A stretch of 64,000 nucleotides of DNA from Candidatus Eiseniibacteriota bacterium (GCA_963792585.1 CAWBWI010000006.1:832001-896000), one strand, 5' to 3'. Positions 18,658-36,909 are shown, counted from the stretch's first letter. Program-made: numbers and translations. The notes: generated by a model not told the origin, from the sequence alone.

Positions 18658-18674
18658 ACTAAGACATTCTTAGT
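18658..18674. promoter_or_regulatory. Perfect 7-3-7 inverted repeat, candidate operator
   Basis: ACTAAGA-CAT-TCTTAGT, overlapping an AAGACA direct repeat (18653-18658 and 18661-18666), in an AT-rich patch upstream of the Ubl/Pup operon. Confidence 0.45.
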
Positions 18675-19099: not shown

Positions 19100-19726
19100 A
19101 TGGGGAAGGAACCGAACGCATCCGACTTCGACGATTCGGACGTCACCGAGCGGATTCGCAGGCTCGTGCGCCAGTTACGGATTCTGCACGAGAGGCTCAA
19201 CCGGATCGAGGAGTACGCGTATACCATTCTCGCGCTGCTCGAGGAGTTGGTCCAGGAAGTCGACACGAACCATGTTACGGCTCCCGCGGCCGCCTCGGGG
19301 CGGCCCGGCCGGATGATCCACGACCGGGCTGCGCTCCGTCGCATGGCCGAGTCGGGAGTCGCCTCGGTCAAGATCGAACGCCATGTCGACGGTTCGGCCA
19401 GTGTCCGCATCGACCGAAGCGACCCGTTCGAACTTTCGCCGGTCCTGGCCGACCTGCTCGAGATCCTCAGTCACGACTTCGGACGGATCACGGATGGCAT
19501 GGTTGGCTGGAAGTCCCGCGAGGAAGTTCGGCTTCTTCTGTCGAAGCAGGCGAACCGTGAAATCACCGAACACGCGCTCACCAACTCGATCTATCGACTC
19601 CGGAGCGAGTTGGAGTCGCGCGGCGGAGTGAATCCGTTCCTTCTGCAGACGACCAGGCGCGACGGGATCCGCTTCGCCGTCCTGCGACCGGGGCAATCAA
19701 CGGAATCGAAGGGAATCACCGAGTAA
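19100..19726 (+). CDS. Putative transcriptional regulator with N-terminal coiled coil and C-terminal OmpR-like winged helix
   Basis: AAGGAGG RBS. C-terminus LSPVLADLLEIL...KSREEV...ALTNSIYRLRSEL...LLQTTRRDGIRF matches the Trans_reg_C pattern. Confidence 0.7.
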   Translation: MGKEPNASDFDDSDVTERIRRLVRQLRILHERLNRIEEYAYTILALLEELVQEVDTNHVTAPAAASGRPGRMIHDRAALRRMAESGVASVKIERHVDGSASVRIDRSDPFELSPVLADLLEILSHDFGRITDGMVGWKSREEVRLLLSKQANREITEHALTNSIYRLRSELESRGGVNPFLLQTTRRDGIRFAVLRPGQSTESKGITE

Positions 19727-19737
19727 GGAGGTCTTCC

Positions 19738-20280
19738 ATGGCTCTGATCTGGATGAAGCGCGACACGATGGCCTGGGCGGCCCTGCCTCTCGAAGCCGGG
19801 AGAATCCGTCTCGATACGGATCCGCCCCGTCGTCTGGAGGACGAGGCGATCGGATCCTCAGACGCGGACGGGGTCCTGCTGCTGAGGCAGTCGGGGGAGG
19901 ATGGAACCGTCTGGATCCTCCTTGCCGACACGAGGTGGAACGTGCGCGTCAACGGGCTCCCCCTGCCCGCCGGAATTCGGGCCCTCGCGGACCGCGACGA
20001 GATCCGGATCGGGGGCATGGAGTCCTGGTACTTCTCGACCGAGGAGTCACCACAGGTCGTCCCATTCCCGGAGGGCGGCGCGAATATCCACTGCCCTCGC
20101 TGCACGTTGGAGATTCAACCCGGGCGGCCGGCCGTCCGCTGCCCGAACTGCGCGGTCTGGCACCACCAAGATCCGGACAGGAAACTCCCCTGCTGGACCT
20201 ACGGGGAACGCTGCGGCGGGTGCGATCTGCAGGAAACCTCTTCCGAGGCGGAGTTCCGGTGGACTCCGTGCGGGTTGTGA
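19738..20280 (+). CDS. FHA-like domain plus prokaryotic RING finger, putative E3 ligase
   Basis: TAAGGAGG RBS. VRVNGLPL...LADRDEIRIG is the C-terminal half of an FHA domain. CPRC-x12-CPNC-x3-HH...CW-x5-CGGC resembles Prok-RING_1. Confidence 0.7.
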   Translation: MALIWMKRDTMAWAALPLEAGRIRLDTDPPRRLEDEAIGSSDADGVLLLRQSGEDGTVWILLADTRWNVRVNGLPLPAGIRALADRDEIRIGGMESWYFSTEESPQVVPFPEGGANIHCPRCTLEIQPGRPAVRCPNCAVWHHQDPDRKLPCWTYGERCGGCDLQETSSEAEFRWTPCGL

Positions 20281-21389
20281 AACGCGTGGTGATCGTCGGG
20301 GCCGGCAACATCGGCTCGCACCTGGCGCCCATGATCGCCCGAATTGCCGAAGTCGGGCGGATCCTGGTGATCGATAGGGATCGATACGAGGGGAAGAACC
20401 TGACCGGGCAATCGATCACGGCCGCCGAGGTGGGTGGCGCGAAAGCGCGCGTGCAGGCGGCCGCGCTCCGCCGGATCTCTCCGGAGATCGAGGTTTCGTC
20501 GTTCGTCGGGGAGTTCGAGCACGTCCCCCTGGGATGGCTGCGCAGCGAGTTGATCCTTGGCTGCCTCGATTCGCGGCGCGGGAGGCAGAGCGTGAACGAA
20601 GCAGCCTTCCACCTCGGCATCCCATGGATCGACGGCGGCGTTCATCCCGACGGCCTCCTCGCGCGGGTGAACGTCTACCTCCCCGGCGCGGATCGTCCCT
20701 GCCTCGAGTGCGCCTGGGATGAGAACGACTACAGGAACATCGAGCAGGAGTATCCGTGCGAATCGGGCAAGGCCGGCGCGGTTCCATCGCCTCCCTCGAC
20801 TCAGGCGACGAATGCCCCTGCCGCCCTCGGCGCTCTGGCGGCCGCCTTGCAGGCGATCGAGGCCGGGAAGATCCTGACGGGTCGCGATGACCTCGTCGTG
20901 GGGGGTCGGCAGATCCAGATCGACGCCTCCCACCATACCCATTACGTGACGGCGTTTCGCCGAAACCACGCCTGCCGCTTCGGCGACCACGCCCCATGGA
21001 CGTTGATCGACCTCCCATCGGCCCCATCGAAGCTGAGGCTGCGCGACCTGGCGGCTCGTCTCCCCGGCAGTCCGGAGCCCCGCGATTGCGCGTTCTCGAT
21101 CGAGGGCCGGTCGTTCGCCCGCGCCCTGACATGTTCCGGGTGCGGTCGAAGGCGCGCCGTACTGCGCTTGGCGAAACTCCCGCCGGGTGGAGAAGGTCTC
21201 TGCCGGTCCTGCGGCGGTCGCATCGTGATCACCGGCGTCGACCGTCTCGATTGCATGGAGGGGAGCGAATTGCCCGCAAGAGATCTCGATCGCCCGCTCG
21301 GCGCGATCGGCGTCCGACCCGGCGACATCGTGCGCGCGGTTGCGGGAGAGGCGACTGCGCGCTTCGTGATCGGCGGAGATTCGGGGTGA
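20277..21389 (+). CDS. ThiF/E1-family ubiquitin-like activating enzyme with C-terminal zinc ribbon and possible ubiquitin-fold domain
   Basis: GTG start overlaps the upstream stop (GTGA). VIVGAGNIGS, DRDRYEGKNL, GCLDSRRGRQSVN, PWIDGG, PCLEC, candidate catalytic Cys in YPCE, then CSGC/CRSC. Confidence 0.85.
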   Translation: MKRVVIVGAGNIGSHLAPMIARIAEVGRILVIDRDRYEGKNLTGQSITAAEVGGAKARVQAAALRRISPEIEVSSFVGEFEHVPLGWLRSELILGCLDSRRGRQSVNEAAFHLGIPWIDGGVHPDGLLARVNVYLPGADRPCLECAWDENDYRNIEQEYPCESGKAGAVPSPPSTQATNAPAALGALAAALQAIEAGKILTGRDDLVVGGRQIQIDASHHTHYVTAFRRNHACRFGDHAPWTLIDLPSAPSKLRLRDLAARLPGSPEPRDCAFSIEGRSFARALTCSGCGRRRAVLRLAKLPPGGEGLCRSCGGRIVITGVDRLDCMEGSELPARDLDRPLGAIGVRPGDIVRAVAGEATARFVIGGDSG

Positions 21390-21522
21390 CGGAAGATAGA
21401 CCCGGGCGCGAAGCGATTGCGCTCGGACCTGTTGCATTCGGACGACACGTGATTTCCCGGCGCGAAACCGGAACGGGGGCCGAGCCGTGAAATCATGAGG
21501 TCGCGTCCAAGGAGGGGACCAA

Positions 21523-22047
21523 ATGGAAGACCGGATCTATGAAGCGTTCCTCGAAGAGCAGTTCGTCAGGGGAATGGAGCTCGCGCGCGCGAGCGACTTC
21601 CTCGAACTCGTTCCGGTGCACGGTGCGCCTCCGTCGATTTACGTCGCCACGTTCCATTCGAAGGGGCTCCTCCGCGCCCCGGATGGCGAGATCGTCGAGG
21701 GCGATCTCTTCGAGGTCGGCATCCGCTTGCCTCCCGAATACCTCCGTCGGGTCCATCCAGCCGAGATTCTGACCTGGCTCGGGCCTCCCACCATATTCCA
21801 TCCAAACGTGTCGTCTCCGTTCGTCTGCGTCGGCCGCATCGTGCCGGGCACGCCTCTCGTCGACATCCTCTACCAGGTCTTCGAGTTGATCGGCGGGACC
21901 AAGATCACGATGAACGAGGCGGACGCGCTCAACTTCGCCGCCTGTCAGTGGGCGCGGGCGCATCCGGAACGATTTCCGGTCGAGCGAAGACCTCTCAAGC
22001 GCCGCGCGATCCGCGTCGAGGCGCAGCCGGTGTCGGAGGCGTCATGA
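21523..22047 (+). CDS. UBC-fold E2 ubiquitin-like conjugating enzyme
   Basis: AAGGAGG RBS. F.V.I.LPPEY, then TIFHPNVSSPFVCVG (HPN motif plus catalytic Cys), then MNEADALNFAACQW, which matches the UBC C-terminal helix motif. Confidence 0.85.
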   Translation: MEDRIYEAFLEEQFVRGMELARASDFLELVPVHGAPPSIYVATFHSKGLLRAPDGEIVEGDLFEVGIRLPPEYLRRVHPAEILTWLGPPTIFHPNVSSPFVCVGRIVPGTPLVDILYQVFELIGGTKITMNEADALNFAACQWARAHPERFPVERRPLKRRAIRVEAQPVSEAS

Positions 22048-22952
22048 ACCGCTCATGGGAACGCCAGGAGACCGGAATCGCCCGCGCGATCCGGAAATCG
22101 GGCGCGGCATTTGCGAGGCCGGCGCCCGGCCGCTGGGAGCTCCACCTGTCGAACGGACATGCATTCAGCGTCGGCGCCGTCCTCGACACCGGCTGGCTCG
22201 TCCTCGAATCGCCGCTGCCCCGCTCGATGAGGATCCCGCCCGCGCCCGACTTGCTCTGCTCCAATGCCCACCTCCCGGGGCTGGCCAAGTTCGCCGACCG
22301 CGCATGCGGTAGGACCGTGAGCATCCAGGCGGAAATTCCGATCGGAGACGGGATCGACCTTGCCGCGCGGCTTCACGAGACTTTGAACGGCTTCTCTCGC
22401 GGCCATGCGATCGCCTCCGGGAAACCGATTCCGTACGGGGAGGCGTTCGGCGCGCCGGCGGACGACGCCCGAGCCTCTGCGGACCTCGCCGGCGGGGAAG
22501 CACTGGTGGCGCCCCGAGCGCTCGTTGCAGCGCTCCGGTCGGTCGGGTGGCCATACCTCGAACGCATCGACGGTTCGATCAGCGTGGAGCTGGAATCCGA
22601 TCACGGCTACCACCAGGCGCACCTCACGGCGGATCCGGAAGGGGCCTTCGCCGCGCGCGTCGGAGTGGCCGACTGGCGCGGCGCGTCGCCTCCCTCCCGG
22701 GAGGCCGCCGCATCCCTGCTGCTCGCGGCCAACAACGGTATGCGCATGGCCCGGGCCGTGGCGGTGGAGCAGGAAGAGCGCTGGGCGGGCCGATTCGAAG
22801 TCCGCCTCGGCAGCTCACCGTGCGACGCGGAGCTGCGTCACGTTCTCGCGGCGCTTTCCGTCGCGTGCCGTCACTGGGCGCGGGAGTTGAGATCACTAGA
22901 ACATCTTTCGACCGCCCAGGCATACCTGGCGGTTCGAGGGGGTCGGTCATGA
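22044..22952 (+). CDS. Hypothetical protein, probably tandem YbjN/T3SS-chaperone-like domains
   Basis: ATGA overlap with the E2 stop. Two similar halves, each with beta-strands followed by LL.xN (LLCSNAHLPGLAKF; LLLAANNGMRMARA) and a terminal helix. Confidence 0.5.
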   Translation: MNRSWERQETGIARAIRKSGAAFARPAPGRWELHLSNGHAFSVGAVLDTGWLVLESPLPRSMRIPPAPDLLCSNAHLPGLAKFADRACGRTVSIQAEIPIGDGIDLAARLHETLNGFSRGHAIASGKPIPYGEAFGAPADDARASADLAGGEALVAPRALVAALRSVGWPYLERIDGSISVELESDHGYHQAHLTADPEGAFAARVGVADWRGASPPSREAAASLLLAANNGMRMARAVAVEQEERWAGRFEVRLGSSPCDAELRHVLAALSVACRHWARELRSLEHLSTAQAYLAVRGGRS

Positions 22953-22994
22953 ACACCCGACTCGGCCGGAGGGAAATCCACACAGGAGGAAACC

Positions 22995-23285
22995 ATGGGA
23001 TCGGATGAGAAGACGGGACTCGCGCTCCTGGTGAGTGACGCGTCTCAGCAGAAGATGGCCAATGTTCGCGACGTGCCGCCCGACGCCAGCATCGGCGAAC
23101 TGGTCCAGGGGCTCCTGGAGTCGTTGAGGCTTCCGAGTCAGGACGCCTCGGGACGTCCCCTGACCTACTGGGCCCGCCTCGACCGGGAGGGGCGCCATGT
23201 CCACGCTTCGGAGCGGGTGGGAGAAGCGCTCCTGCCCGGCGACCACCTGATCTTGAGCCCGAACATCGACGCCGGAGGTTGTTAG
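22995..23285 (+). CDS. Ubiquitin-like beta-grasp protein with C-terminal AGG-C tail
   Basis: 96 aa, AGGAGG RBS; VPPDASIGELVQGLL helix; GDHLILSPNIDAGGC* (gcc gga ggt tgt tag); located between E2 and JAB. Confidence 0.8.
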   Translation: MGSDEKTGLALLVSDASQQKMANVRDVPPDASIGELVQGLLESLRLPSQDASGRPLTYWARLDREGRHVHASERVGEALLPGDHLILSPNIDAGGC

Positions 23286-23364
23286 GAAACCCGCTCGCGC
23301 AGACGCGCCGCAAGCGGCGCGCGCGTGCGGCGGCCGCGGATCACCACGGGGGAGGGACGAATCG

Positions 23365-24396
23365 ATGCTGACCAACCGGTGCCGTTTCGTGCTGCACGTC
23401 TTCCAGGGCGACGGGACGTCCCTCGGGCAATCGCCGGCCGAGATCGACTTCGAGCCGGCCCGTGAATGGACTCGGCTCCGAGCCATCCGACAGGGTTGCA
23501 CGCCCGCCGCCCTGTCCGGCGCGACCGAGTCCATCCTCCCCGTCTGGCACACCGAGATCGGGGAGCCGTATCTCGCGGGCTTTCGGGTCCGCCTCTCATT
23601 CGAGGACGGCGGGGTCACGTGCGCCTTTCCAATCACCTACTTCAAGGAAGCGGGCCAGGACGCCTCCAGGGCATACATGAAACGCGGCCACCTCAAGGAG
23701 GGCGATCGCTTCCTCTTCCTCGTAGCCGCACTTCCGGCGGATCCGACCGCGCGGCCTCGCAGGACCCTCGCGCTGACGACCGAGGAACTCATCCCGCAGC
23801 TGCCGATCCTGGAAACTCCGCTAACGGGCTTCGGCTGCGGCGTCGAATTCGCCGGACCCTCTGCGGACCGCGAGTTTCCCGTCTTCATCCCCCGCACGAT
23901 CCTGCAGGAGGCAGAGGAGCTCTGCCGTGCGGCGGGATCGATCGAGACGGGCGGGATCCTGATCGGCCGTCTCCATCGCGATCCGTCGATCCCGGAGGCC
24001 TTCCTCGAGATCACCGCCCAGATCCCGGCGCGGCATGCGATCGGGGAGAAGGCGAGCCTCACATTTACGCCCGACACCTGGGCGGACGCGCGCGCGGCAA
24101 TCGCCCTGCGCGCCCGCAATGAACTCAACGTCGGGTGGTGGCACTTCCACCCGGTCCGGTCCTGGTGCGATGGGTGCCCGCCGGAGAAAAAGCACGATTG
24201 CACCCTCGCCTGCAGCTTCTTCAGCGAGCAGGACCGGAAGCTTCACCGTGTCGTGTTTCCGGCCGCGTACAGCGTGGCCCTCGTCGTCAACGCCATCAAC
24301 TCGGGATCGATGACACCCTCGCTGTTCGGTTGGCGCGAAGGAACGATCACCGCCAGGGGCTTCTACCGCATCGACGCGCCCGTCACCGTCAACTGA
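23365..24396 (+). CDS. JAB/MPN+ (JAMM) metallo-isopeptidase with N-terminal extension
   Basis: ETGGILIG, VGWWHFHP...FFSEQD (E, HxH, SxxD). A Cys-rich insert lies inside the JAMM motif. Confidence 0.85.
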   Translation: MLTNRCRFVLHVFQGDGTSLGQSPAEIDFEPAREWTRLRAIRQGCTPAALSGATESILPVWHTEIGEPYLAGFRVRLSFEDGGVTCAFPITYFKEAGQDASRAYMKRGHLKEGDRFLFLVAALPADPTARPRRTLALTTEELIPQLPILETPLTGFGCGVEFAGPSADREFPVFIPRTILQEAEELCRAAGSIETGGILIGRLHRDPSIPEAFLEITAQIPARHAIGEKASLTFTPDTWADARAAIALRARNELNVGWWHFHPVRSWCDGCPPEKKHDCTLACSFFSEQDRKLHRVVFPAAYSVALVVNAINSGSMTPSLFGWREGTITARGFYRIDAPVTVN

Positions 24397-24426
24397 GCCA
24401 GTCCAACGGCTGTTCAAGGAGGAAAG

Positions 24427-26130
24427 ATGCCCCGTGCGGCCCGCACCCAGCCCTCGCTTCCGTTTCTTCTGGACATGCTCGTTCACAATGCCGGGGAGGA
24501 GCCGCTGGACGGGCCGTCGTTCCACCACCTCCAGAGCCTGCGCGGTCAGTCGCCGGAGGTGAACCGCGAGATCGACATGATGCTCCTCGATCGCATGCGC
24601 CACCTGCACCGCGGGATGGCGGAGATCCAGGCGAGGCAGGACGAGCTGCGCGCGGTGATCGAGAAGCTGGGGGCTCCCCCCTATCATCCCGCCATCTATC
24701 TGGGGACGACGGAAACGGCCCGCGGCACGCTTGCGGTCGTCCACCACGGCAATGGGCGACGGTTCGTATCGGTGTCCGATTCGTGCGACCTCTCCTCCCT
24801 GTCGAGAGGCGACGGCGTCCTCCTGACCAATGAGCTGAATTGCCTTCTCGAGCGCGCGCCCAACCCTTCGCTCGCATGCGGCGAGACGGCCGTCTTCGAC
24901 CGCCTCGTCTCGGAGGATCGGGCGGTCCTCAAGTCGCGCGACGAAGAGACCGTCGCATGCTTGAGCGGCCCGCTCTCGGAGATCGGGCTGCGCGCGGGCG
25001 ACATCGTGCGGTGGGACCGGGGCGCAGGACTTGCGTTCGAAAAGATTCCGTCATCGAACGAGTCGAGCTTCTTCCTGGAGCACACCCCGCAGGAGACCTT
25101 CGCCGACATCGGCGGGCTGGACGACCGGATCGAGAAGATCTGCACCGTGATCCGACTCCAGATGGAGTCCCCGGATCTGTCGCGAAAGTACCGACTGCCG
25201 CCGAAACGATCGATCCTCCTGGTCGGTCCCCCGGGGACCGGCAAGACCATGCTGGCGCGCGCTTTGGCCAACTGGGTCGCAACGTTGGCTCCGTCGGGGC
25301 GCAGCCGTTTCATGTCGATCAAACCCGGCGAGATGAACTCGATGTGGTACGGCCAATCGGAGGCGATCATCCGTCAGACCTTCCATGCGGCGCGCGAGGC
25401 GGGAGAGACCGATCCCGATGTGCCCGTCGTCCTCTTCTTCGACGAGGTCGACTCGATCGGCGCGGCCCGCGGCGGGGCGCTGGGCCACATCGACGATAAG
25501 GTCCTCGAGGCGTTCATGGTCGAGCTCGAGGGACTCCAGGACCGCGGGAACGTGCTCGTCGTCGCCGCCACGAACCGACGCGACCTGCTCGACAGCGCCC
25601 TGGTGCGGCCCGGACGCCTCGGGGACCTGGAGATTCGCGTTCCGAGGCCGGGGGTCGAGGAAGCGCGGGAAATCCTCCGCAAGTACCTGCGGGACGACAT
25701 GCCGTACGCCGCGAACGGAAACGGCGGCGACCCGGATCTCGAGCGCGCCGCGATCGTCGACGCCACGGTCTCCCGGATCTTCGCCCAGAACGGCGAGAGC
25801 GACGTGGCGACGGTCGTCTTCCGCGACGGGAAGCAGCGCACCGTCCAGATGAAGGACATCGTCAGCGGGGCGATGATCAAGAAGCTCGCACGGGACGCCT
25901 CGGAGGCCGCGTGCATCCGCGAGGGTTCCACCGGCGAGGCGGGGATCCGTCTCGAGGACATGCTGACCACACTCACGGCCGAAATGGAGATGGCCGCGCT
26001 CTCCCTGACCCCGGCCAATTGCCGGAGCCAGTTGGAGAACCTCCCTCAGGATGTCGACGTCGTACGGGTCGATCCGGTCCGCCGCCGCGTCGCAGGCCCG
26101 CACCACTACATCCGTCTACAGGAAGTCTGA
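24427..26130 (+). CDS. arc: ARC/Mpa-like proteasomal AAA+ ATPase
   Basis: N-terminal coiled coil then PPY, OB-like interdomain, FADIGGL, Walker A GPPGTGKT, Walker B VLFFDEVDS, SRH LVRPGRL, ARC-type FRDG...KDIVSGAMI. C-terminus HHYIRLQEV lacks GQYL. Confidence 0.85.
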   Translation: MPRAARTQPSLPFLLDMLVHNAGEEPLDGPSFHHLQSLRGQSPEVNREIDMMLLDRMRHLHRGMAEIQARQDELRAVIEKLGAPPYHPAIYLGTTETARGTLAVVHHGNGRRFVSVSDSCDLSSLSRGDGVLLTNELNCLLERAPNPSLACGETAVFDRLVSEDRAVLKSRDEETVACLSGPLSEIGLRAGDIVRWDRGAGLAFEKIPSSNESSFFLEHTPQETFADIGGLDDRIEKICTVIRLQMESPDLSRKYRLPPKRSILLVGPPGTGKTMLARALANWVATLAPSGRSRFMSIKPGEMNSMWYGQSEAIIRQTFHAAREAGETDPDVPVVLFFDEVDSIGAARGGALGHIDDKVLEAFMVELEGLQDRGNVLVVAATNRRDLLDSALVRPGRLGDLEIRVPRPGVEEAREILRKYLRDDMPYAANGNGGDPDLERAAIVDATVSRIFAQNGESDVATVVFRDGKQRTVQMKDIVSGAMIKKLARDASEAACIREGSTGEAGIRLEDMLTTLTAEMEMAALSLTPANCRSQLENLPQDVDVVRVDPVRRRVAGPHHYIRLQEV

Positions 26131-26131
26131 C

Positions 26132-27772
26132 ATGAGGAGACAGGGAAGACGTCGGAGGCGTGTGAACTCGTCGAACTTCGGTCCGCAGATCCCAAAACTG
26201 TGTGGGGCGGACGTCGAGCTGGGCAATTTCGTGCTCGGCGTTGGGGCCGGCGATGACACATGCGCGGAGGCGGCCCATGCGCTTCTCTACCGGATCGAGG
26301 GATTGCCGCGACGACGGTGGTACCAGCAACAGGCGCTCGCCTACACGGACTCCATGGGGGTGCTGCACATCACCCCCGGCCGAACCAATCCGCAGGACTG
26401 GGGACGGCGGTACCTCTCCTCGAACGGGGGTTGCGTCTACATCGATCTGAATCACCTGGAGATCTGTCTCCCCGAGGTCCGGAGCGCCTGGGATCACGTA
26501 GCCGCCTGGCACGCGATGCTCCGGATCGCCCGCGCGGCGCAAGAGGCCACGATCGCACACCGCTCGTCCGAACGCCGGATCCAGGTCCTCGCGAACAACA
26601 GCGACGGCCGGGGCAACTCCTATGGGAGCCACCTCGACCTTCTCGTGACGCGGCAGGCCTGGGACAACATCTTCGAGCGCAAGCTCCAGTATCAGCTCTT
26701 CCTCGCCGCGCACCAGGTGTCGAGCATCGTGTATGCGGGCGCGGGCAAGGTGGGGAGCGAGAACCGCGCCCCCGACGCGACCTTCCAGCTCTCGCAGCGG
26801 GCCGACTTCTTCGAGCGGATTTGCGGGGTGGAGACGACCTTCAACCGGCCGATCGTCAACTCGCGCGACGAAGCCCTGTGCGGGCGCTCGTCGATCCAAG
26901 AAGAGAACGTCCCGGCCGATCGGATGGCCCGCCTCCACGTGATCTTCTACGACAGCACTCTGAGCCATGTCGCCTCCCTGCTGAAGGTGGGCGCGATGCA
27001 GATCGTCCTGGCGATGATCGAGGCCGAGTGCGTGCCGATCCGGTTCGCGCTGGAGGATCCGCTGCGGGCCCTGCGGGAGTGGAGCCGGGATCCCGCGATG
27101 CGGGTCCGGGCCGAAACCGTCGGCGGGGCTCACCTGACCGCCGTCGAGCTGCAGATGCGGATCGTAGAACAGGCCCGTCGCTTCATCGATCGTGGTGGTT
27201 GCGACGGCATCGTCCCGCGGGCCGAGGAGATCCTCTCCCTCTGGGAGGAGACCCTCACCCTGCTCGAGGCGGGGGACATCGCGACCCTCGCCCCACGCGT
27301 CGACTGGGCGTTGAAGCTCACGGCGCTGACCCGCGCTCTCGACCGCAGGAGGGATCTGGACTGGGGATCCCCGGAAATCAAATACCTCGACCACCTGTAT
27401 TCGAGTCTCGACCCGAACGAGGGGCTCTATTGGGGCTACGAACGCAGTGGGGTCACCCAATCGGTGGTGTCCGAACTCGAGATCGACCGTTTCGTGTCCG
27501 AGCCGCCCGCCGACACGCGCGCATGGAGTCGCGCGCACCTGATGCGCCTCGCTGGTCCCGACCGGATCGACGATGTGGATTGGGACTCGATCCGCTTTCG
27601 TCTGAACGGGGACGGCGCCTGGACACGGCGCCGCACCTTCGAGATGGCCGATCCCCTCGCCTTCACCGAGGCCGAGGCCGCGTCGATCGTCTACAGCGGC
27701 GCCGACCTGGAGACCGTCCTGGATGCACTCGAAGAACTCAATGAAAGGAGCGTGAGCCATGTCACCGGGTGA
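26132..27772 (+). CDS. dop: Dop-like Pup deamidase/depupylase (PafA/Dop family), divergent
   Basis: KLCGADVELG, long W-containing loop, NGGCVYIDLNHLE, NNSDGRGNSYGSH, GAGKVG, FQLSQRADFFE, ETTFNRPIVNSRDE, RLHVI, DWDSI; located between arc and pup. The start could instead be GTG 26162. Confidence 0.75.
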   Translation: MRRQGRRRRRVNSSNFGPQIPKLCGADVELGNFVLGVGAGDDTCAEAAHALLYRIEGLPRRRWYQQQALAYTDSMGVLHITPGRTNPQDWGRRYLSSNGGCVYIDLNHLEICLPEVRSAWDHVAAWHAMLRIARAAQEATIAHRSSERRIQVLANNSDGRGNSYGSHLDLLVTRQAWDNIFERKLQYQLFLAAHQVSSIVYAGAGKVGSENRAPDATFQLSQRADFFERICGVETTFNRPIVNSRDEALCGRSSIQEENVPADRMARLHVIFYDSTLSHVASLLKVGAMQIVLAMIEAECVPIRFALEDPLRALREWSRDPAMRVRAETVGGAHLTAVELQMRIVEQARRFIDRGGCDGIVPRAEEILSLWEETLTLLEAGDIATLAPRVDWALKLTALTRALDRRRDLDWGSPEIKYLDHLYSSLDPNEGLYWGYERSGVTQSVVSELEIDRFVSEPPADTRAWSRAHLMRLAGPDRIDDVDWDSIRFRLNGDGAWTRRRTFEMADPLAFTEAEAASIVYSGADLETVLDALEELNERSVSHVTG

Positions 27773-27968
27773 TGAATTGAGGATCCGGCCCGCGACCCAA
27801 CGACAGGGGCCCGGCAGCGAAGCGGCGGCAGAGGGGGGAGGATCCCTCGAAAGCCTCCGCGCCCAGGGAGAACGGCTTCTGGCCGCGAGCGATGAGGCAA
27901 TCGACCGGGCCCTCTCGGGAGACAGCGAGGCATTCCACCGCGCGAACAGGCAACACGGAGGTCAGTAG
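27759..27968 (+). CDS. pup: Pup-like prokaryotic ubiquitin-like protein ending GGQ
   Basis: 69 aa, AAAGGAG RBS, low-complexity N-terminus, helical DEAIDRAL. C-terminus EAFHRANRQHGGQ* parallels Pup's FVRAYVQKGGQ. Overlaps the dop stop. Confidence 0.85.
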   Translation: MSPGDELRIRPATQRQGPGSEAAAEGGGSLESLRAQGERLLAASDEAIDRALSGDSEAFHRANRQHGGQ

Positions 27969-27970
27969 CC

Positions 27971-29623
27971 TTGGTTCCGCGCCTCATGGGGTTGGAGTCG
28001 GAGTACGCCCTCGCCGGCCATGGACCGGCGAGGGATTCCGCGGGCCCGGACGCGTTGCTCTCCCTGCTGCAGGAAACCGCCAGAAATCGGCTGCTGCATC
28101 TTTCCGGCATGCGGGACGCCGGGATCTTTCTGGCCAACGGATCGCGGTTCTACATCGACGCCGGCGGACACCCTGAGATGTGTTCTCCCGAGTGCACCAA
28201 CCCTTGGGATCTCGTTCGTTACTGCTTTGCAAATGAGCGCACGCTCTCCGGACTGCTCGACGCCATGCGTGGCTCCCTGCCGCCCGGCGCCGACCTCGCC
28301 CTGTACAAGTGCAACGTCGACTACGGCGGGACCCGCGCGACCTGGGGATGCCACGAGAGCTATCTCCACCGGATGGACCCCTGCCCGCTCCATGAGCAAC
28401 TGATCCCCCACCTCGTCTCGCGTGTCATCTATGCGGGGGCCGGAGGTTTCGACTCGACCTCTTCGGGTCTGACATTCCTGCTGTCGCCGCGCGCCGCCCA
28501 CATCTTCCGCGTCTCCTCGGATCAATCGACCGGGGACCGCGGGATCATTCACACGAAGGACGAATCCCTGACGAACCGCCGCTATCACCGCCTCCATCTG
28601 ATCCTGGGGGAGAGCCTCTGCTCCGAGACCGCGCTGTGGCTGAAGTTCGGGGTGACAGCGCTGATCGTCGGCATGGTCGAAGGAGGGCTCCTCCCGGGGC
28701 GCGACGTCGAACTCGCCGATCCGCTGGCCGCGTTCCGAACCTTCGCCGGGGATCCCACGTGCCGGGCGACCGCCCCATCCCGCGACGGGCGCCGGCTGAG
28801 CGCCCTCGCGATCCAGCGTGTCTACCTCGCGTATGCGGAATCGCACCTGGGCGCCGCGTTCATGCCCGAATGGACGGAACGTGTCTGCGCCGCGTGGCGG
28901 GGCTGCCTGGATCGCCTCGAGGGGGCCCCGACCTCGGTCGCAACCACCCTCGACTGGGCGATCAAGTACGCCCTCTTCACCGCCCACCTCCACCGTCAGG
29001 GAACGAGCTGGGAAGCAATGCTTTGCTGGACGGAGGTGATCGACGAGATCTATCGCTGCGCCCGGTTGGGTGGCATGACGGAGCGGCCCGTCACACTGGA
29101 GAAGCTGATCGGTCCCCGGGGGCCGATGCGCATGACCGCGGTCGGCCTCTCGCCGCTCCTGCGCGAACACGGCGAGGCCTGGGACCGGCTACCCCGTTTC
29201 CAGCAGGTGCGGCGCGAGCTGTTCGAGCTGGATGTGCGCTTCGGAGAGATCGGAATGCGCGGGCTCTTCAGTCGGATGGATCGCGCCGGCCTCCTATCGC
29301 ACAAAGTCGAAGGGGTGGAGCCGATCGATCCGGCCACCTCCGTTCCCCCGGCGGAGGGGCGGGCCCACCTGCGCGGAGAGTGGATCCGCCATCTCGCGAG
29401 CGCCCGCAAGCGGGCACAGTGCGACTGGGAGTCGGTCATGGACTATGAGCGCGGCCGGGTCCTCGATCTCGGCGACCCCTTCGCGACGGAGGAGACATGG
29501 ATGGACTTCCCGGAGTACGAGCGCAATGCGATGGGTCCGTCGGGATTCGGGCTCGCGGAGGACTCCCTCCGAATCCGGCGCATCCTCCTCCGTCGTCACC
29601 TGGCCGGCACGGAGGAGGGCTGA
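27971..29623 (+). CDS. pafA: PafA-like Pup-protein ligase
   Basis: RLMGLESEY, FLANGSRFYIDAGGHPE, WGCHESYL, LIPHLVSR...GAG, LSPRAAHI, RLHLILGE, LDWAIK, PP..RAHLRGEWI, DW, DPF. Starts 2 nt after the pup stop (TTG; ATG 27986 is an alternative). Confidence 0.85.
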   Translation: MVPRLMGLESEYALAGHGPARDSAGPDALLSLLQETARNRLLHLSGMRDAGIFLANGSRFYIDAGGHPEMCSPECTNPWDLVRYCFANERTLSGLLDAMRGSLPPGADLALYKCNVDYGGTRATWGCHESYLHRMDPCPLHEQLIPHLVSRVIYAGAGGFDSTSSGLTFLLSPRAAHIFRVSSDQSTGDRGIIHTKDESLTNRRYHRLHLILGESLCSETALWLKFGVTALIVGMVEGGLLPGRDVELADPLAAFRTFAGDPTCRATAPSRDGRRLSALAIQRVYLAYAESHLGAAFMPEWTERVCAAWRGCLDRLEGAPTSVATTLDWAIKYALFTAHLHRQGTSWEAMLCWTEVIDEIYRCARLGGMTERPVTLEKLIGPRGPMRMTAVGLSPLLREHGEAWDRLPRFQQVRRELFELDVRFGEIGMRGLFSRMDRAGLLSHKVEGVEPIDPATSVPPAEGRAHLRGEWIRHLASARKRAQCDWESVMDYERGRVLDLGDPFATEETWMDFPEYERNAMGPSGFGLAEDSLRIRRILLRRHLAGTEEG

Positions 29624-29804
29624 AGGCGGCGGAGGACGCAAGCCCGCGCCGCGCAGCTGCGCTTGCCGTTCGACTGAGTCTGTAAGACGCAGGTAAGAGG
29701 CGCCTGGGATCTTCCTCTCATCCACCCGACATCGGTTCCGTCACGCGCTCGGACGAGGGCGGAGAAGGGACCGGAGCCGTCGGGAGGAGAAAAGGAGGTC
29801 CAAG

Positions 29805-31343
29805 ATGACCACCCATGGGGCACTCGATCGGTTCTCCAGGTCCGACTCGCCCTCGAATCGAACCGCGGGATGGATGGCAGCGGCCGCGACGGCGGCGAGC
29901 GCACTTCTGCTGCTCGCTGCGATCGTGGGTGTCGCACAAGCCCGGATCTGTCTCTCGAACATGAAGATCAACAATGCGTCTCCGGTCCTGATCCACTGCG
30001 GGGACACGGTGAATCTCGACTGCTCCGTCGACTACGAGATCGACAACGAGACGATGAGCGCGGGCCCCTGCATCAATGTTGCCGCGCCCGCCGACCTCAC
30101 GGCGCAAATCTGGGACGACGACGGGTGGTTTGGACACGAATGGTACAAGTCATGGATGGTCACCATTCCGGATGACCCCCCGTCGGGGACGGTCAACTTC
30201 ACCATTCCGTTGGACTGCACCAGCGCACCCGAGTGCGAGGACTGCAAGATCCTGGGGGACGAAAACGAGGCCGAGGTCTTCCTAGCCTTCTGGAATGAGC
30301 TGAGTTGTCCGGGTTCCGCGGTCACGATCGCCCGCTGCATCTGCGGCAATTGCGGCCACCGGACCTCCCTGGGAGACGGCGGCGGCGTGCGGGGCACGGT
30401 GGCGACGTTCGACTGGAACACCGACGCGCCATTCCAGGCGGTGATGGGCTTCAGCGGCGCGATTCGGTTCGACCCGAACGCCTACCAGTACTCATCGCTG
30501 GTATTCACCGATCCCTTCGTCCAAGCCCACGCGCAGGTGACTCCGACCGCGACCGGCGTCGCATTCCAGGCTCATTTCCCGGCCCCGTACGACCTGCTGG
30601 TCGGCTCCTTCGGGCAACTGGATCTCGGAATCCTGCCGAACGCCCCGCTGGCGGAGACTTGGATCGCGTTCGATCCTCAGACGGTCTTCTTGGATCAGGC
30701 CGGGCAGTCGATTCCTTGCTGCAAGGTGGATGGAGTCGGACGCACCCTTCCGGTCGACCAAACCGCTCCGCAGATCATCGCGCCCCTCGTGACCTTCGAT
30801 TCCTGCACGCTGATGGGGCGGCCGGGAAGCATCGTGGATGAATACCTTGGGCTCGTTCCCAACTACGTCACGGTGGATGCGTACATGGGCAACGAGTATC
30901 TCGGATTTCGGGATGTCGATCCGGACGGGAGTTTTTCCTTCCCGAATCTCACGCTTCCGGCGGGATCGGTGATTCAATTCTTCGCGCACGACCGCAACGG
31001 AAACACGGGGCAGACCCAGTTCGGCCCGGCCGGGTCCTGCACCGCGACCGTCGATGAACCGTCTCTCGAGGCCGGCGGGATTCGGCTCGCGCCGAATCCG
31101 TTGCGTGATCGAGGGGTCATCACCTTCCATATCCCCGAAGCGGGCTCCGGGACGCTGGAGGTCCTGGACGCCGCCGGCCGCTCGGTGCGACGGATGGATC
31201 TGCCCGCACTCCGCGCGGGAACGCAGGAACTCCCGTGGGACGGCCGGGACGATCGTGGGGAGCTGCTTCCGTCGGGCATCTACTACTATCGTGTGCGGAC
31301 GGCCGATCGGCTGTTCCGTGGAAGCCTCGCGGTCATTCACTGA
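29805..31343 (+). CDS. Secreted Cys-containing protein with cohesin-like domain and C-terminal FlgD-Ig domain
   Basis: AAGGAGG RBS, hydrophobic signal, GFSGAIRFDP cohesin-like motif, C-terminal APNP...WDGRDD...SGIYYYRV. Confidence 0.7.
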   Translation: MTTHGALDRFSRSDSPSNRTAGWMAAAATAASALLLLAAIVGVAQARICLSNMKINNASPVLIHCGDTVNLDCSVDYEIDNETMSAGPCINVAAPADLTAQIWDDDGWFGHEWYKSWMVTIPDDPPSGTVNFTIPLDCTSAPECEDCKILGDENEAEVFLAFWNELSCPGSAVTIARCICGNCGHRTSLGDGGGVRGTVATFDWNTDAPFQAVMGFSGAIRFDPNAYQYSSLVFTDPFVQAHAQVTPTATGVAFQAHFPAPYDLLVGSFGQLDLGILPNAPLAETWIAFDPQTVFLDQAGQSIPCCKVDGVGRTLPVDQTAPQIIAPLVTFDSCTLMGRPGSIVDEYLGLVPNYVTVDAYMGNEYLGFRDVDPDGSFSFPNLTLPAGSVIQFFAHDRNGNTGQTQFGPAGSCTATVDEPSLEAGGIRLAPNPLRDRGVITFHIPEAGSGTLEVLDAAGRSVRRMDLPALRAGTQELPWDGRDDRGELLPSGIYYYRVRTADRLFRGSLAVIH

Positions 31344-31460
31344 TCCGGGGGCGGGTTCACCAGTCGGGTCCCGGTGATCGCGGCGTGCGATCGCCGGGAC
31401 TTGACGCTATCCTGAGATCCACCCCCAGCCGATAGGGTGCCGCCGACCAGGGAGGACCTC

Positions 31461-31844
31461 GTGAACCGGGAACCGATCGACCCCGCCGGGCTCGCCACGC
31501 TCGCCACGATCGAGCGGTTCAACGCGGCATTCAACCTTCACGACGTACCGGCCATCATGGCGCTGATGACGGATGACTGTGTCTTCGAGAGCACGCGTCC
31601 GACGCCGGATGGACAGAAGGTCGCCGGCCGGGTCGCAGTGCGGCAATTCTGGGAGGAGTTCTTCGGTCGATCGCCCCATGCGAGATTCGAGACCGAAGAG
31701 GCGTTCGCGACCGGGGATCGCGCCGTCGTCCGTTGGGTCTACCACTGGGTACGGGATGGCGTTCCAGGACATGTCCGCGGAATCGATCTCTTCCGCGTCC
31801 GGGACGGTAAAGTGGCCGAGAAGATGTCGTACGTGAAAGGGTGA
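31461..31844 (+). CDS. SnoaL-like / NTF2 family protein
   Basis: GGAGG RBS then GTG; FNAAFNLHD...LMTDDCVF...GDRAVVRW...RGIDLFRVRDGKVAEK. Confidence 0.85.
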   Translation: MNREPIDPAGLATLATIERFNAAFNLHDVPAIMALMTDDCVFESTRPTPDGQKVAGRVAVRQFWEEFFGRSPHARFETEEAFATGDRAVVRWVYHWVRDGVPGHVRGIDLFRVRDGKVAEKMSYVKG

Positions 31845-33915: not shown

Positions 33916-36909
33916 CTATTGCAGTACGACCAGCTTGGCCGTGCGGATCTCACCGGCCGCGGCAAGCCTGCACAAGTACAATCCCGATGCAGCGGTCCGG
34001 GCATCCCACACGGCGGTGTGCCATCCCGCCGTCTGGACGCCGTCGGCGATGCGGGCCACGCGCCTCCCGGTCACGTCGAAGACTTCCAGGCGCACTTGGC
34101 CGGCCCGGGGCAGGAGATACTCGATCGTGGCGGTGCTCCGCGTGGGATTCGGCCTGCCTCCGCGAAGCTCGATCTCCGGCCGTCGTCCGAACGCATCGTC
34201 GGACACGAGGGATGGCGAGGGTTCCGCACGGACGTCTTCCCACCGGACGACCGCGTTCGCCGACGCCGCTGTGAAACGGACCTGGATGTAGCGAATGTTG
34301 CTCGGATAGGGAAGAGCGAGCGGCAGGTCGGCCGCCTGCCAGGGTTCCCACTCGATCAAGCGAACGTCGTCGAACCAAGCATAGTTCTCACCGGACTCGG
34401 GCTTGTCCATGTGCGGACGCAAATTGAAGAAGTGGGCCGATTCGGTCGCTACGAAGTCGCTCCAGAGATACGTCCAGTCGGCCGTGCCGCTGATCGGCGC
34501 CCCCGCCTCCTGCGACGCAAGGAGCTGTCCCCCCCGGCTGGCGAAGACCCTCGCGAGGATCCCCGCGGAGACCGCGCTCTGCGTCTTCACCCATCCGCAC
34601 ACCGAAAAGTCGGTTCCGCCGAGGGCGGCGGGGTAGCCGTCGAGATCCGTCTGGACCGGCCCGGTGTTGTTCGAGGTGCGGTGCTGTCGGAGCGAACGCA
34701 CGCCGGAGTGTGCGGTCGTGGCGTCGTAGACCTCATCGGCGCTGTTGAGATTCCAGAAGGTGGCCCCTTCTTGCTCCATGCTCCCATGCCAGAGGATCTC
34801 GCGGCCGACACGAACCTCCGCGAGGCCCGCACCTTCGACCGCCGTGACGCGAGAGAGCGTCCCGAGCCCCTCCCTCTCGATCGGGATCGAGACGTAACGG
34901 CCCTCGATCTGGCTGAGCGGAACGGTCGCCTCGTGCGCTTCGGGCGTCCAGACGATGCTTTCCGGATGAAGCTGAATCGTCCCCATCATCGCCTCGGGAT
35001 CGACGGTGACGATGGTGTTCAGTTCGCGCGAGTAGTCTGCTTGCCTGTCGAGAATCTCCCTCCCCAGTCGACCCGACGCGGGTTGGGGGATCTTTTCATC
35101 GATGAAGGCGGGTCGGAATGTGAAAGAGCGGAATCCGCTCTTCGTGAACTCCGAGTTCAGCACGAGGGTCGGCATCGTCTCGGCAAAGGACTGATCGAAG
35201 ACGAAGTTGCCGAGGGAGTGCGCGATCAGGACCCCGTAGTAGACCTCGAATCCCTGCAGTACATGGGGATGGTGGGCGATCACGAGATCCGCCCCCTCGT
35301 CGACAGCCCGCCATTTGAGTTGCCGGTCCGTGAAGGATGGGCGGGTCGGGAAGCGGACGTCCATCATACCGGGCACCGGTCCCTCGGCGTCGAGAGCCGC
35401 CTCGAGGGCGGCCGGGTCGACATCCCTCTTTCCCGGATCGATGGCGTACTCGATCCCGGCATGGAGCTGCACGACGGTGAGATCCGCCAGCGGCTTGGTG
35501 GCCGCGATCGAGATCCCGAGTTGCGGCTCGATCAGGTAGGCGAATCCGAGCTTGTTCATCGCGGCGTCCAGGAACGGCTGATAGTTGTACTCGCGCCCGG
35601 TTCGGTTACACATCCCCAGGAATGCGATCGACGTCCCCCGCTCGGTCCAGTACGTCGGCGTGAACGCCTGGTATTCATCCAGCCCGGCGCCGGTCCAGCG
35701 GATCCGGGCACCGTCGAGCGTCTCGATCGTCTCCTCGAGCCCGCGCCGCATGTAGTCGGCCGCGTGGTTGTTCCCGAGGGAGACGACGTCGATGCCGGCA
35801 TAGACGAGGCCGGCCACGTTCGACGGCCTCGCCCGGAAGACGATCGACTTCGTCGGGTGCCGTTCCCCCTCGTCCGTGAAGGGCATCTCGTTGTTGCAGA
35901 CGCTGATGTCGGCCGCATCGCCGTAGATCGGCTTCGTTGGAATGAACATCCACTCCGGTCCATGCTGATCGATCAGGCCACCGGGTTCGTCGTAGGCGCG
36001 GGCGAGCATCACGTCGCCCACGAAGTTCATCTTCACGGGCGGATCGAAGCCGCCCGGGTCAACACGCACCTCCAAGGTGTCGTGACCCCACATCCCGCTC
36101 TCGTCGCGCACATCGAGCGACACGGTGTATGTATGGTCCGACGTGACGATGAAATCGTGGCTCGGGTCCTGCAGGTTGCTGAAGGTGCTGTCGCCGAAAT
36201 CCCACGAATAGGTCCACTGCTGGCTGTCCGGGTCATCGACCTGTGCGTGGAAGTTCACGGAGACCCGCCAGAGGCCCGCGCGCACAGATTGAACATTCTG
36301 CCGACCCTGCACGATCTCGACTCCAGGAGCCACGGGCAGGTCGGAGGTCACGTCGACGATATCGTCGAAGAGGACGATCCCCTTGAGCCCCGCATCTCGA
36401 TCGTTGAGGTAGATCAGGCGGGAGACGCTGGGGTAGTAGCCGTATCGCGCATACCAATCGCGCCCCACGGGCAGCAGGTACTCGTTCCAGACGCCGGTCT
36501 CGAACGCGCCCTGGTACGAGACGTCCCAATCGCTCCCCGACTGGAGCTGGGTGCCCGCGAATGCGTAGAAGAGCCGGTTCACGCCGTCGTCGATGCCGAA
36601 GCCCTGGATCTCACCGAGCTCCTCGATGTATGCGGCAACGCCCCAAACCGTCCCCGCCTCGATCGGGTAGGCGACGATCGGTTGGGCTTTCCAGGTATTG
36701 CCGAACAGGCGCAACGAGTAGTTCGAATCGTTGTGGGAGTTCGCGTGGGTGAGGCTCCAGTCGTTCGGATCGATGTCCTGGTCCTCGTAGGACTCGAGAA
36801 CGACCTGACCCGACTCGAAATCGGCAAGGACGACACCCCGAACCGCCTGGGCGGAAGCGGTGGAAGCCAGGAGCGCGACCAGACAGGCGGCAAGTGCGAA
36901 CCGGAGCAT
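33916..36909 (-). CDS. CapA-family (PGA_cap metallophosphoesterase) protein fused to PKD, CBM-like and FlgD-Ig domains
   Basis: Signal peptide; YSWDFGD PKD motif; FVGDVML, NNEMP, SLGNNHAADY, LHAGIEY, HHPHVLQ, SLGNFVFDQ; C-terminal PNP...WDA...SGLYLCRL. Confidence 0.85.
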   Translation of the reverse strand: MLRFALAACLVALLASTASAQAVRGVVLADFESGQVVLESYEDQDIDPNDWSLTHANSHNDSNYSLRLFGNTWKAQPIVAYPIEAGTVWGVAAYIEELGEIQGFGIDDGVNRLFYAFAGTQLQSGSDWDVSYQGAFETGVWNEYLLPVGRDWYARYGYYPSVSRLIYLNDRDAGLKGIVLFDDIVDVTSDLPVAPGVEIVQGRQNVQSVRAGLWRVSVNFHAQVDDPDSQQWTYSWDFGDSTFSNLQDPSHDFIVTSDHTYTVSLDVRDESGMWGHDTLEVRVDPGGFDPPVKMNFVGDVMLARAYDEPGGLIDQHGPEWMFIPTKPIYGDAADISVCNNEMPFTDEGERHPTKSIVFRARPSNVAGLVYAGIDVVSLGNNHAADYMRRGLEETIETLDGARIRWTGAGLDEYQAFTPTYWTERGTSIAFLGMCNRTGREYNYQPFLDAAMNKLGFAYLIEPQLGISIAATKPLADLTVVQLHAGIEYAIDPGKRDVDPAALEAALDAEGPVPGMMDVRFPTRPSFTDRQLKWRAVDEGADLVIAHHPHVLQGFEVYYGVLIAHSLGNFVFDQSFAETMPTLVLNSEFTKSGFRSFTFRPAFIDEKIPQPASGRLGREILDRQADYSRELNTIVTVDPEAMMGTIQLHPESIVWTPEAHEATVPLSQIEGRYVSIPIEREGLGTLSRVTAVEGAGLAEVRVGREILWHGSMEQEGATFWNLNSADEVYDATTAHSGVRSLRQHRTSNNTGPVQTDLDGYPAALGGTDFSVCGWVKTQSAVSAGILARVFASRGGQLLASQEAGAPISGTADWTYLWSDFVATESAHFFNLRPHMDKPESGENYAWFDDVRLIEWEPWQAADLPLALPYPSNIRYIQVRFTAASANAVVRWEDVRAEPSPSLVSDDAFGRRPEIELRGGRPNPTRSTATIEYLLPRAGQVRLEVFDVTGRRVARIADGVQTAGWHTAVWDARTAASGLYLCRLAAAGEIRTAKLVVLQ

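Follow-up and report, generated by a model that had tools for sequence, protein, structure and literature searches.

A cassette of ubiquitin-type and Pup-type tagging genes around a proteasome-type ATPase, without 20S proteasome genes in the host genome searched, in a Candidatus Eiseniibacteriota bacterium

A 64,000-nucleotide stretch of the genome of a Candidatus Eiseniibacteriota bacterium (GCA_963792585.1, CAWBWI010000006.1:832001-896000), here called the window, carries on its plus strand, at 24427-29623, four tightly packed genes of the Pup type: an ARC-like ATPase, a Dop-like enzyme, a Pup-like modifier and a PafA-like ligase. The ATG of the Dop-like gene lies 1 nt past the ARC stop, the Pup-like open reading frame (ORF) has an AAAGGAG ribosome-binding site before its ATG, and the PafA-like gene starts with TTG 2 nt past the Pup-like stop, leaving no space for prcB and prcA between them. 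An earlier note, made from the sequence alone, had described a Pup module in the order arc-dop-pup-pafA with pafA 2 nt after the pup stop; the ORF junctions bear this out, and the coordinates and C-terminal letters of the ATPase given there are exact. The four genes are thus real, but they make up only half of the unit. They form the 3' half of an operon of ten conserved genes at 19738-29623, and its 5' half encodes a ubiquitin-type tagging set.

The genes of this cassette follow one another in the order FHA-RING protein, E1, E2, a tandem protein resembling type III secretion system (T3SS) chaperones (unk302), a ubiquitin-like protein (Ubl), JAB peptidase, ARC, Dop, Pup and PafA (Table 1). Starts and stops overlap or nearly abut at the junctions, and a ribosome-binding site precedes each gene. 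All eleven genes at 18989-29623, the cassette and the gene before it, are syntenic in 4/4 loci of close kin, at 26-63% protein identity. A scan with an E2 alignment, taking one genome per species, gave 56 loci, 54 of them in the family and two distant and Solirubrobacter-type. Where at least 8.3 kb is available downstream of E2, relatives of Ubl, JAB, ARC, Dop and PafA follow in order in 35 of 38 loci; the three misses are a locus with nothing downstream (L060), one with no PafA match (L075) and a divergent one without a Ubl match (L081). On the other side, FHA-RING and E1 are present in 47 of the 48 loci with enough upstream sequence. The reverse test set a PafA-like alignment against metagenome contigs and returned 385 relatives, of which 80 were kept and 22 have at least 8.6 kb upstream. 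Genes of the ubiquitin half are found in 20 of these 22 loci: ten show the full order and three lack only an E1 match. In seven rearranged loci of the 22, the PafA-like gene is separated from its partners, which lie on the opposite strand no more than 10 kb away.

Individual loci show further variation. In the metagenome contigs L134, L155, L166, L172, L183 and L147 the PafA-like gene lies 4-6 kb off on the opposite strand, and the run unk302-Ubl-JAB-ARC-Dop-Pup ends with the tag gene. Two PafA-like genes occur in L173, an E1 and a second PafA-like gene stand upstream of the cassette in L069 (6233-8875), and L037 has a second relative of the RING protein downstream (19064-19654; 30% identity).

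Could the Pup half be self-sufficient all the same, a Corynebacterium-like Pup/ARC module that lost prcBA and travels with a separate E1/E2/Ubl/JAB system? Its four genes do form a complete set in canonical order, a proteasome-less precedent exists in Corynebacterium glutamicum (PMC8223512), and the seven metagenome loci with a detached PafA-like gene on the other strand speak for some modularity. However, linkage of the two halves holds in 35 of 38 loci of one scan and in 20 of 22 of the other, across more than ten phyla and at 26-60% protein identity, and linkage on this scale argues for joint selection. The lineage of the cassette is also distinct from that of canonical systems. An independent module is unlikely.

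This distinctness is clearest where both systems share a genome. Two Myxococcota-type genomes (G043 and G050) carry the cassette plus a separate ARC-Dop-Pup-PrcB-PrcA-PafA locus. Proteins of the canonical locus pass 6/6 NCBIfam equivalog cut-offs, with 730, 587, 57, 298, 303 and 553 bits; the L099 canonical Pup reaches 57.2 bits with TIGR03687 (cut-off 41.45). The canonical ARCs of L099 and L100 end SGQYL, and the canonical Pup ends in VQRGGQ. The cassette proteins of the window pass 0/4 of the equivalog cut-offs and are about 34% identical to the canonical ones. Because a canonical locus can stand alongside the cassette, and because the equivalog scores fall below cut-off, the Pup half is, as far as sequence tells, a diverged lineage and not a canonical system that lost prcBA; the same separation speaks against a recent loss of prcBA. 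The earlier note had drawn a parallel with corynebacteria, which use Pup/ARC without a 20S particle; a stand-alone locus of the Corynebacterium kind is not supported, given the equivalog scores and the linkage of the four genes in 35 of 38 loci to the FHA-RING/E1/E2/Ubl/JAB set, which the note does not mention.

An Acidimicrobiia record (G053; L047, L101/L102), an actinobacterial metagenome-assembled genome, adds a different case. The ligases of its canonical Pup locus score 561 and 548 bits on Pup_ligase, and alongside stands a fragmented cassette copy, in which the Dop-like frame contains two TGA and one TAG codon. To judge by these frames, the cassette here seems to be decaying next to a canonical system that still works.

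By record title the cassette occurs in Acidobacteriota, Gemmatimonadota, Planctomycetota, Verrucomicrobiota, Armatimonadota, Candidatus Eisenbacteria, Hydrogenedentota, Myxococcota, Binatia and others, a spread of more than ten phyla, and its tree does not track taxonomy. Among 40 relatives of the host, Pup_ligase is present in five and the full cassette in four. Such a patchy spread over many phyla would suit a system of biological conflict, for instance against phages, which upon infection would tag and unfold proteins of the invader or of the cell itself, in the manner of Bil or CBASS-Cap2/Cap3. The E1 and JAB proteins match the Cap2-like E1-E2 and Cap3-like JAB models of PADLOC, and a coupled Ubl and Pup system is mentioned in a paper on conflict systems (Kaur et al. 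2020). However, PADLOC 2.0 defines no defence system in the cassette or its neighbours, its matches being limited to generic E1, JAB and AAA domains, and 0/8 flanking proteins match. No recognisable effector (nuclease, pore-former or NADase) accompanies the cassette, and all three genomes of genus g8 that were searched keep it. A role in conflict has little probability; it concerns the biological role of the cassette and would be compatible with a mechanism that unfolds proteins carrying two kinds of tag.

The absence of a 20S partner is central to the unfolding mechanism. The genome of the host (5.4 Mb in 7 contigs) is 84% complete, and its one PF00227 match is HslV, directly 5' of HslU; the best score on TIGR03690 (beta subunit) is 13.8 bits, and TIGR03691 (alpha subunit) gives nothing at E<=10. 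Since 84% completeness leaves room for a miss, the kin were examined for 20S genes as well. The four cassette-bearing kin (93-99% complete) have one PF00227 match each, in every case HslV, and so does the relative G015, which carries a lone ligase-family gene; the HslV proteins of these five are 59-77% identical to that of the host and adjoin HslU. Ten cassette genomes from other phyla comprise seven with a single PF00227 match over the cut-off, one with none and two with an adjacent alpha/beta pair; G045 has a second match of 17.1 bits, below the cut-off. Altogether, 20S genes were not found in 13 of the 15 carrier genomes (the host, its four kin and the ten from other phyla). The claim of the earlier note that the module has no 20S proteasome is upheld by the search of the 84%-complete host genome and of 4/4 cassette-bearing kin. 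Its placing of the module in a non-actinobacterial host agrees with the nearest cassette locus, which belongs to a Candidatus Eisenbacteria record.

The lone gene of G015, a genome of the same order (L023/L010), is a Pup_ligase gene of 152.6 bits, about 31% identical to the PafA-like protein. The surrounding 20 kb give no tblastn matches to ARC, the Dop-like protein, the tag or the ubiquitin half.

The ATPase itself departs from its canonical counterpart at the end that would meet a 20S particle. It scores 304.5 bits on TIGR03689, below the cut-off of 504.75, and passes to Pfam as AAA (105.6 bits) and Prot_ATP_ID_OB_C (40.7 bits). Residues 57-519 align with residues 70-554 of Mpa, and identity to canonical ARC is 34% up to residue 521, the last 46 or so residues being unalignable. 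Walker A and B are conserved among 41 cassette ATPases. Neither a penultimate Tyr nor a GQYL end occurs in any of the 42 complete cassette ATPases (0/42); most of these tails end in DLPQDVDVVxVEP(x7-10)[HY]R[YF]Lxx[VA]A, of which the HHYIRLQEV of the window is a version two residues longer. GQYL is the 20S docking motif and acts through its penultimate aromatic residue and terminal carboxylate (PMC8223512). With Tyr in another than the penultimate position, the cassette tail cannot meet the terminal carboxylate geometry of HbYX/GQYL ends. The earlier note had the ATPase lacking its docking tail; this stands insofar as no GQYL/HbYX end is present, but the tail has been replaced by another conserved motif and not deleted. 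A sequencing error that masks GQYL is unlikely, given that a non-GQYL end of this kind recurs in 42/42 complete homologues, and an independent DNA contig from a strain about 95% identical has no indel near the ARC 3' end.

The conservation of the tail motif suggests, from the alignment, that it has some binding role. Might it let the ATPase engage some other host protease, such as HslV or a further chambered peptidase, so that tagged proteins are degraded after all? The motif is kept in most of the 42 ATPases, HslV is present in the six genomes inspected (the host, its four kin and G015), and the sentence in Kaur et al. (2020) reads the coupling of the two systems as support for degradation. 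Yet Tyr is not penultimate in the tail, HslV has a partner of its own in the neighbouring HslU, and the only protease gene conserved in the cassette is that of the JAB isopeptidase. Degradation by this route is very improbable. With neither a 20S partner nor a GQYL/HbYX end, degradation by the 20S particle is not expected either, and unfolding or disassembly becomes the natural reading. The earlier note had favoured unfolding or disassembly over degradation, and the two absences sustain it that far, the unfolding itself being deduced from them.

The tag of the Pup half is Pup-like only at a distance. Searched against Pfam and NCBIfam, the ORF of the window has no match to any model, even at E<=10. 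A small ORF ending in G[QE] nevertheless lies directly before the PafA-like gene in 37 of the 40 loci with both ligase genes, with 27 GGQ, 6 GGE, 3 SGQ and 1 TGQ ends. When 28 members are combined in a profile, its top match in the PDB is Pup (7px9_G, a weak E of 0.0098), and Pup chains account for 5/7 matches. In a set of 1.84 billion proteins this profile reaches 871 representative clusters at E<=0.001, and the best 150 of the 871 are all 61-72 aa long. On these profile matches, the tag is a large family of its own that appears distantly related to Pup. The predominance of GGQ ends would fit a need for a Dop-type deamidase. UBact, a Pup-like tag of Gram-negative phyla, has reportedly been described by Lehmann et al. 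in 2017.

The two tags of the cassette differ in lysine content. The Pup-like tags are poor in Lys, with a K/(K+R) of 0.05 vs 0.12-0.23 in the other cassette proteins, and Lys is absent from 17 of 29 family members and from the tag of the window. The Ubl is the most Lys-rich protein of the cassette, and one of its lysines, near residue 20, is conserved.

Both ligase-family proteins pass Pfam Pup_ligase, and each leans towards one of the canonical enzymes. The Dop-like protein scores 278.3 bits on TIGR03688 (Dop) vs 222.4 on the PafA model, below the Dop cut-off of 492.3, and carries an insertion at the site of the canonical Dop loop. For the PafA-like protein the scores are 230.9 bits on TIGR03686 (PafA) and 226.8 on the Dop model, below the PafA cut-off of 551.3; it has a soluble-looking insertion of about 65 aa in its C-terminal domain. 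The labels Dop and PafA are given on the grounds of these score preferences, the insertion at the Dop-loop site and the gene order. The putative catalytic Asp and the metal and ATP motifs of the Dop-like proteins are at least 95% conserved (n=40); in the PafA-like proteins (n=31) the GxExEY, D63 and HPE motifs are conserved, the active-site residues at 95% or more. A tree of 91 ligase-family sequences, which left out G054, places the cassette Dop-like and PafA-like proteins each in a clade of its own with support of 100. There is no third Pup-ligase gene in the host genome. The idea that the cassette is a decayed remnant was rejected, active-site motifs being conserved in the ATPase, the JAB protein, the E1 and both ligase-family enzymes.

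Table 1. Genes of the cassette and the gene preceding it, in window coordinates
Feature	Position	Strand	Description
Regulator-like protein, possible C-terminal winged helix	18989..19726	+	245 aa, first gene of syntenic block
FHA-fold + RING-like zinc finger protein, candidate E3	19738..20280	+	180 aa
E1-like adenylating enzyme, ThiF family	20277..21389	+	~370 aa, ThiF 103.8 bits (Pfam)
E2-like (UBC-like) protein	21523..22047	+	174 aa, HPN...C motif
Tandem T3SS-chaperone/YbjN-like protein (unk302)	22044..22952	+	302 aa, two domains
Ubl modifier candidate	22995..23285	+	96 aa, ends ...DAGGC
JAB/JAMM metallopeptidase, uncharacterised ~165-aa N-terminal domain	23365..24396	+	343 aa
ARC/Mpa-like AAA+ ATPase (coiled coil, OB, AAA)	24427..26130	+	567 aa, non-GQYL C-terminus, ends ...AGPHHYIRLQEV
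Dop-like Pup-ligase family member	26132..27772	+	546 aa, Pup_ligase 308 bits
Pup-like modifier	27759..27968	+	69 aa, ends RQHGGQ
PafA-like Pup-ligase family member	27971..29623	+	550 aa, Pup_ligase 294 bits

The ubiquitin half opens with the candidate E3. Its AlphaFold model has a predicted local distance difference test (pLDDT) score of 92.2, and all Foldseek matches of the N-terminal 110 or so residues are FHA domains, with a probability of 1.00, a best E of 2.5e-3 and a template-modelling (TM) score to the target of about 0.6; no Foldseek match reaches E<=0.001. The C-terminus scores 21.4 bits on Prok-RING_1, below the cut-off of 29.1. Across 45 sequences the zinc finger follows the pattern C-x2-C-x12-C-x2-C-x4-H-x8-C-x6-C-x2-C, in which the seven Cys are invariant and the His is at least 90% conserved. 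As the alignment shows no conserved GR/SxxH phosphopeptide motif, binding of phosphopeptides by the FHA-RING protein is not claimed.

The E1 starts with a GTG that shares bases with the stop codon of the preceding RING gene (GTGA), and its GxGxxG motif and CxxC pairs are conserved (n=48). In the E2-like protein H93, P94, N95 and C102 are invariant among five sequences; the protein has a weak UQ_con match (E 0.069), and the best PDB match of its profile is a eukaryotic E2 (6op8_A, E 0.032). The ATG of unk302 overlaps the E2 stop. This protein matches nothing in Pfam, NCBIfam or PADLOC and gives no Foldseek match at E<=0.001, and its AlphaFold model (pLDDT 90.4, predicted TM score 0.89) contains two copies of the T3SS-chaperone/YbjN fold. 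With VIA-align the C-terminal half reaches a Z of 10.9 to 8q8o_B (2.9 A root-mean-square deviation over 127 residues) and the N-terminal half a Z of 10.3 to SycH (1ttw_A), and 15 chains stand at Z>=8.

The Ubl candidate has no match among the Pfam and NCBIfam hidden Markov models. It is 51-63% identical among kin and, in 47 sequences, keeps a C-terminal A-G/G-G followed by 0-5 extra residues. The JAB protein matches Prok-JAB with E 0.0031, below the cut-off, and the JAB models of PADLOC with E 7.6e-8; its E...HxH...SxxD motif is at least 95% conserved (n=46). A search of the ESM Atlas with its N-terminal domain gave a best score of 0.81, below lead level. Between the HxH and SxxD halves, at residues 258-275 or so (24138-24190), lies a Cys-rich insert, WCDGC...C...C, which is partly conserved (n=46) and may be an extra zinc site.

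Whether the unit extends one gene further upstream is less certain. The regulator-like gene is syntenic in 4/4 kin loci at 31-56% identity and has a weak Trans_reg_C match in Pfam (E 0.053, 14 bits, below the cut-off). Its membership is uncertain because tblastn finds it in only 11 of the 54 wider loci.

Three metatranscriptome runs contain contigs, 95-96% identical to the window, that cover parts of the cassette and bridge the RING/E1, unk302/Ubl, Dop/Pup and Pup/PafA junctions, a hint that the cassette is transcribed. Promoter and terminator scans gave nothing above shuffled expectation, Rfam found no family at 15800-31500, and a tandem-repeat search upstream of the cassette returned two trivial rows only.

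The flanks hold genes of other kinds. Upstream, 16789-18538 on the plus strand encodes a 348-aa Cys-rich protein with weak zinc-ribbon matches and a 229-aa unannotated ORF (17849-18538), and a 2.8-kb contig from the RNA libraries spans 16877-18899 and, near 18535-18549, has 33 nt inserted that the window lacks. Further upstream, an 817-aa protein on the minus strand (12123-14576) combines LVIVD repeats, fn3 and an FGE-sulfatase domain. Downstream, 29805-31343 and 33916-36909 encode large proteins with FlgD_ig or C-terminal sorting domains of the type IX secretion system (T9SS) type (Por_Secre_tail 21.1 bits, just below the cut-off). These FlgD_ig/T9SS-type proteins fit a host of the Fibrobacteres-Chlorobi-Bacteroidetes (FCB) group with an outer membrane.

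Taken together, these observations lead to a model whereby the whole cassette is a two-tag system and its ATPase unfolds tagged proteins instead of feeding them to a proteasome, a reading given somewhat better than even chances. The Ubl would be cut back to its terminal Gly by the JAB peptidase and then attached to lysines of the target by E1, E2 and the FHA-RING protein. In the other half, the Dop-like enzyme would deamidate the GGQ end of the Pup-like tag to GGE, and would also remove the tag, while the PafA-like enzyme would ligate it to lysines. The coiled coils of the ARC-like hexamer would then capture the disordered Pup-like tag, and the protein that carries it would be drawn through the pore of the hexamer. 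As there is neither a 20S particle nor an HbYX/GQYL end, the protein would end up unfolded, disassembled or inactivated. The [HY]R[YF]Lxx[VA]A tail and the tandem T3SS-chaperone-like protein may serve contacts within the system, such as the handing over of substrate, and not the docking of a protease.

A bolder version, which seems unlikely, would liken the cassette to the 19S regulatory particle of the proteasome, as a bacterial equivalent that has no core particle, its two chemically unrelated tags acting in series on one substrate. The FHA-RING E3 would place the Ubl on the target, and the PafA-like enzyme would add the Pup-like tag to the Ubl or the target as a handle for threading. The ARC-like ring would pull on this handle while the JAB protein strips the Ubl at the pore, like Rpn11, and the tandem T3SS-chaperone-like protein would hold the unfolded chain.

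Several observations weigh against a two-tag system that unfolds its substrates. Two of the 22 metagenome loci (L152 and L168) have a PafA-like gene without ubiquitin-half genes in the stretch covered. The host genome is only 84% complete, and the single PF00227 matches in seven genomes of other phyla could be HslV, Anbu or BPH. The conserved C-terminal motif of the ATPase could dock on a protease that was not recognised. The Dop-like protein departs from canonical motifs, with GxDxE-L for GxExEY and HL[DS] for HEN. Its clade joins canonical Dop with a Shimodaira-Hasegawa-like approximate likelihood ratio test (SH-aLRT) value of 61 in the tree of 91 rows and of 74 in a thinned set of 28, and the alternative that groups cassette Dop with cassette PafA is not rejected (log-likelihood difference 0.95; approximately unbiased test, p-AU 0.485). 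Finally, the RNA runs that cover the cassette cover its flanks at similar depth (the upstream 18.9 kb patchily), their contigs give neither strand nor a single transcript, and carry-over of DNA may contribute.

Ubiquitin-type tagging, with E1, E2, E3 and a C-terminal Gly, and Pup-type tagging, with a glutamine-synthetase-like ligase and a C-terminal Glu, are taught as independent inventions that belong to different organisms. The cassette holds both in one packed operon around a single proteasome-type unfoldase, in many phyla of Gram-negative type. If the two tags cooperate, it would offer a simple bacterial model for the coupling of a tag to an unfoldase, a means to test whether signalling by ubiquitin-like tags to AAA+ motors is older than the core of the proteasome, and a new route of regulated unfolding or inactivation of proteins in bacteria. 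The pairing of the tags is already in print as one sentence (Kaur et al. 2020).

That sentence, in an eLife paper on conflict systems, describes a Ubl system coupled with a Pup system in Thermofonsia and Planctomycete lineages and takes the coupling as support for the degradation of targets (Kaur et al. 2020). It most likely refers to the same cassette family, which likewise joins a prokaryotic E1/E2/RING/JAB Ubl system to Pup-type conjugation genes. What the present cassette adds are features that the paper does not mention: a gene order, the ATPase tail, the absence of a proteasome and the chaperone-like gene. The paper names those two lineages only, whereas the cassette occurs here in records of more than ten phyla, with no 20S genes found in 13 of 15 carrier genomes. 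The sentence was the only literature found on the combined cassette, and no experiments were found.

The actinobacterial Pup-proteasome system shares with the cassette the order ARC-Dop-Pup-PafA, an ATPase of coiled coil, OB and AAA domains, two Pup_ligase paralogues and a small tag ending GG[QE]. The cassette differs in having no prcBA and no GQYL, a tag that Pup models miss and a PafA-like protein with an insertion of about 65 aa, and in that its Pup module is joined to a ubiquitin-type set. Closer in its lack of 20S subunits is C. glutamicum, which like the cassette has Pup, PafA, Dop and ARC. Without prcBA, pupylation there leads to the degradation-independent disassembly of ferritin and release of iron (Kuberl et al. 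2016, cited in PMC8223512). However, the locus of C. glutamicum is a canonical actinobacterial one that probably lost prcBA secondarily, whereas the cassette is a separate, diverged lineage of Gram-negative-type phyla with a second, ubiquitin-type tagging set.

Iyer, Burroughs and Aravind (2008, PMC2588565) had already recorded Pup systems outside Actinobacteria and described, in Plesiocystis and Rhodopirellula, membrane-anchored Pup ligases without linkage to a proteasome. These share with the cassette non-actinobacterial Pup/PafA genes and the lack of linkage to a proteasome. Their ligases have four inserted transmembrane segments and lie beside a membrane-protein gene, whereas the insertion of the cassette enzyme is a soluble-looking one of about 65 aa and its neighbours are the ARC-like gene and the ubiquitin-type set.

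On the ubiquitin side, Caldiarchaeum is said to possess a prokaryotic E1-E2-RING-JAB ubiquitin-like operon. Bil and Cap2/Cap3 are bacterial ubiquitin-like systems with E1, E2, RING and JAB components (PMC11601603). With all of these the cassette shares a ThiF-type E1, an E2 with HPN and Cys, a JAMM peptidase, a small zinc finger that may be RING-like and a candidate Ubl that has a C-terminal Gly and a short extension. In contrast to them, its putative RING is fused to an FHA fold, a tandem T3SS-chaperone-like gene is inserted among the ubiquitin-type genes, and ARC, Dop, Pup and PafA are joined to the set.

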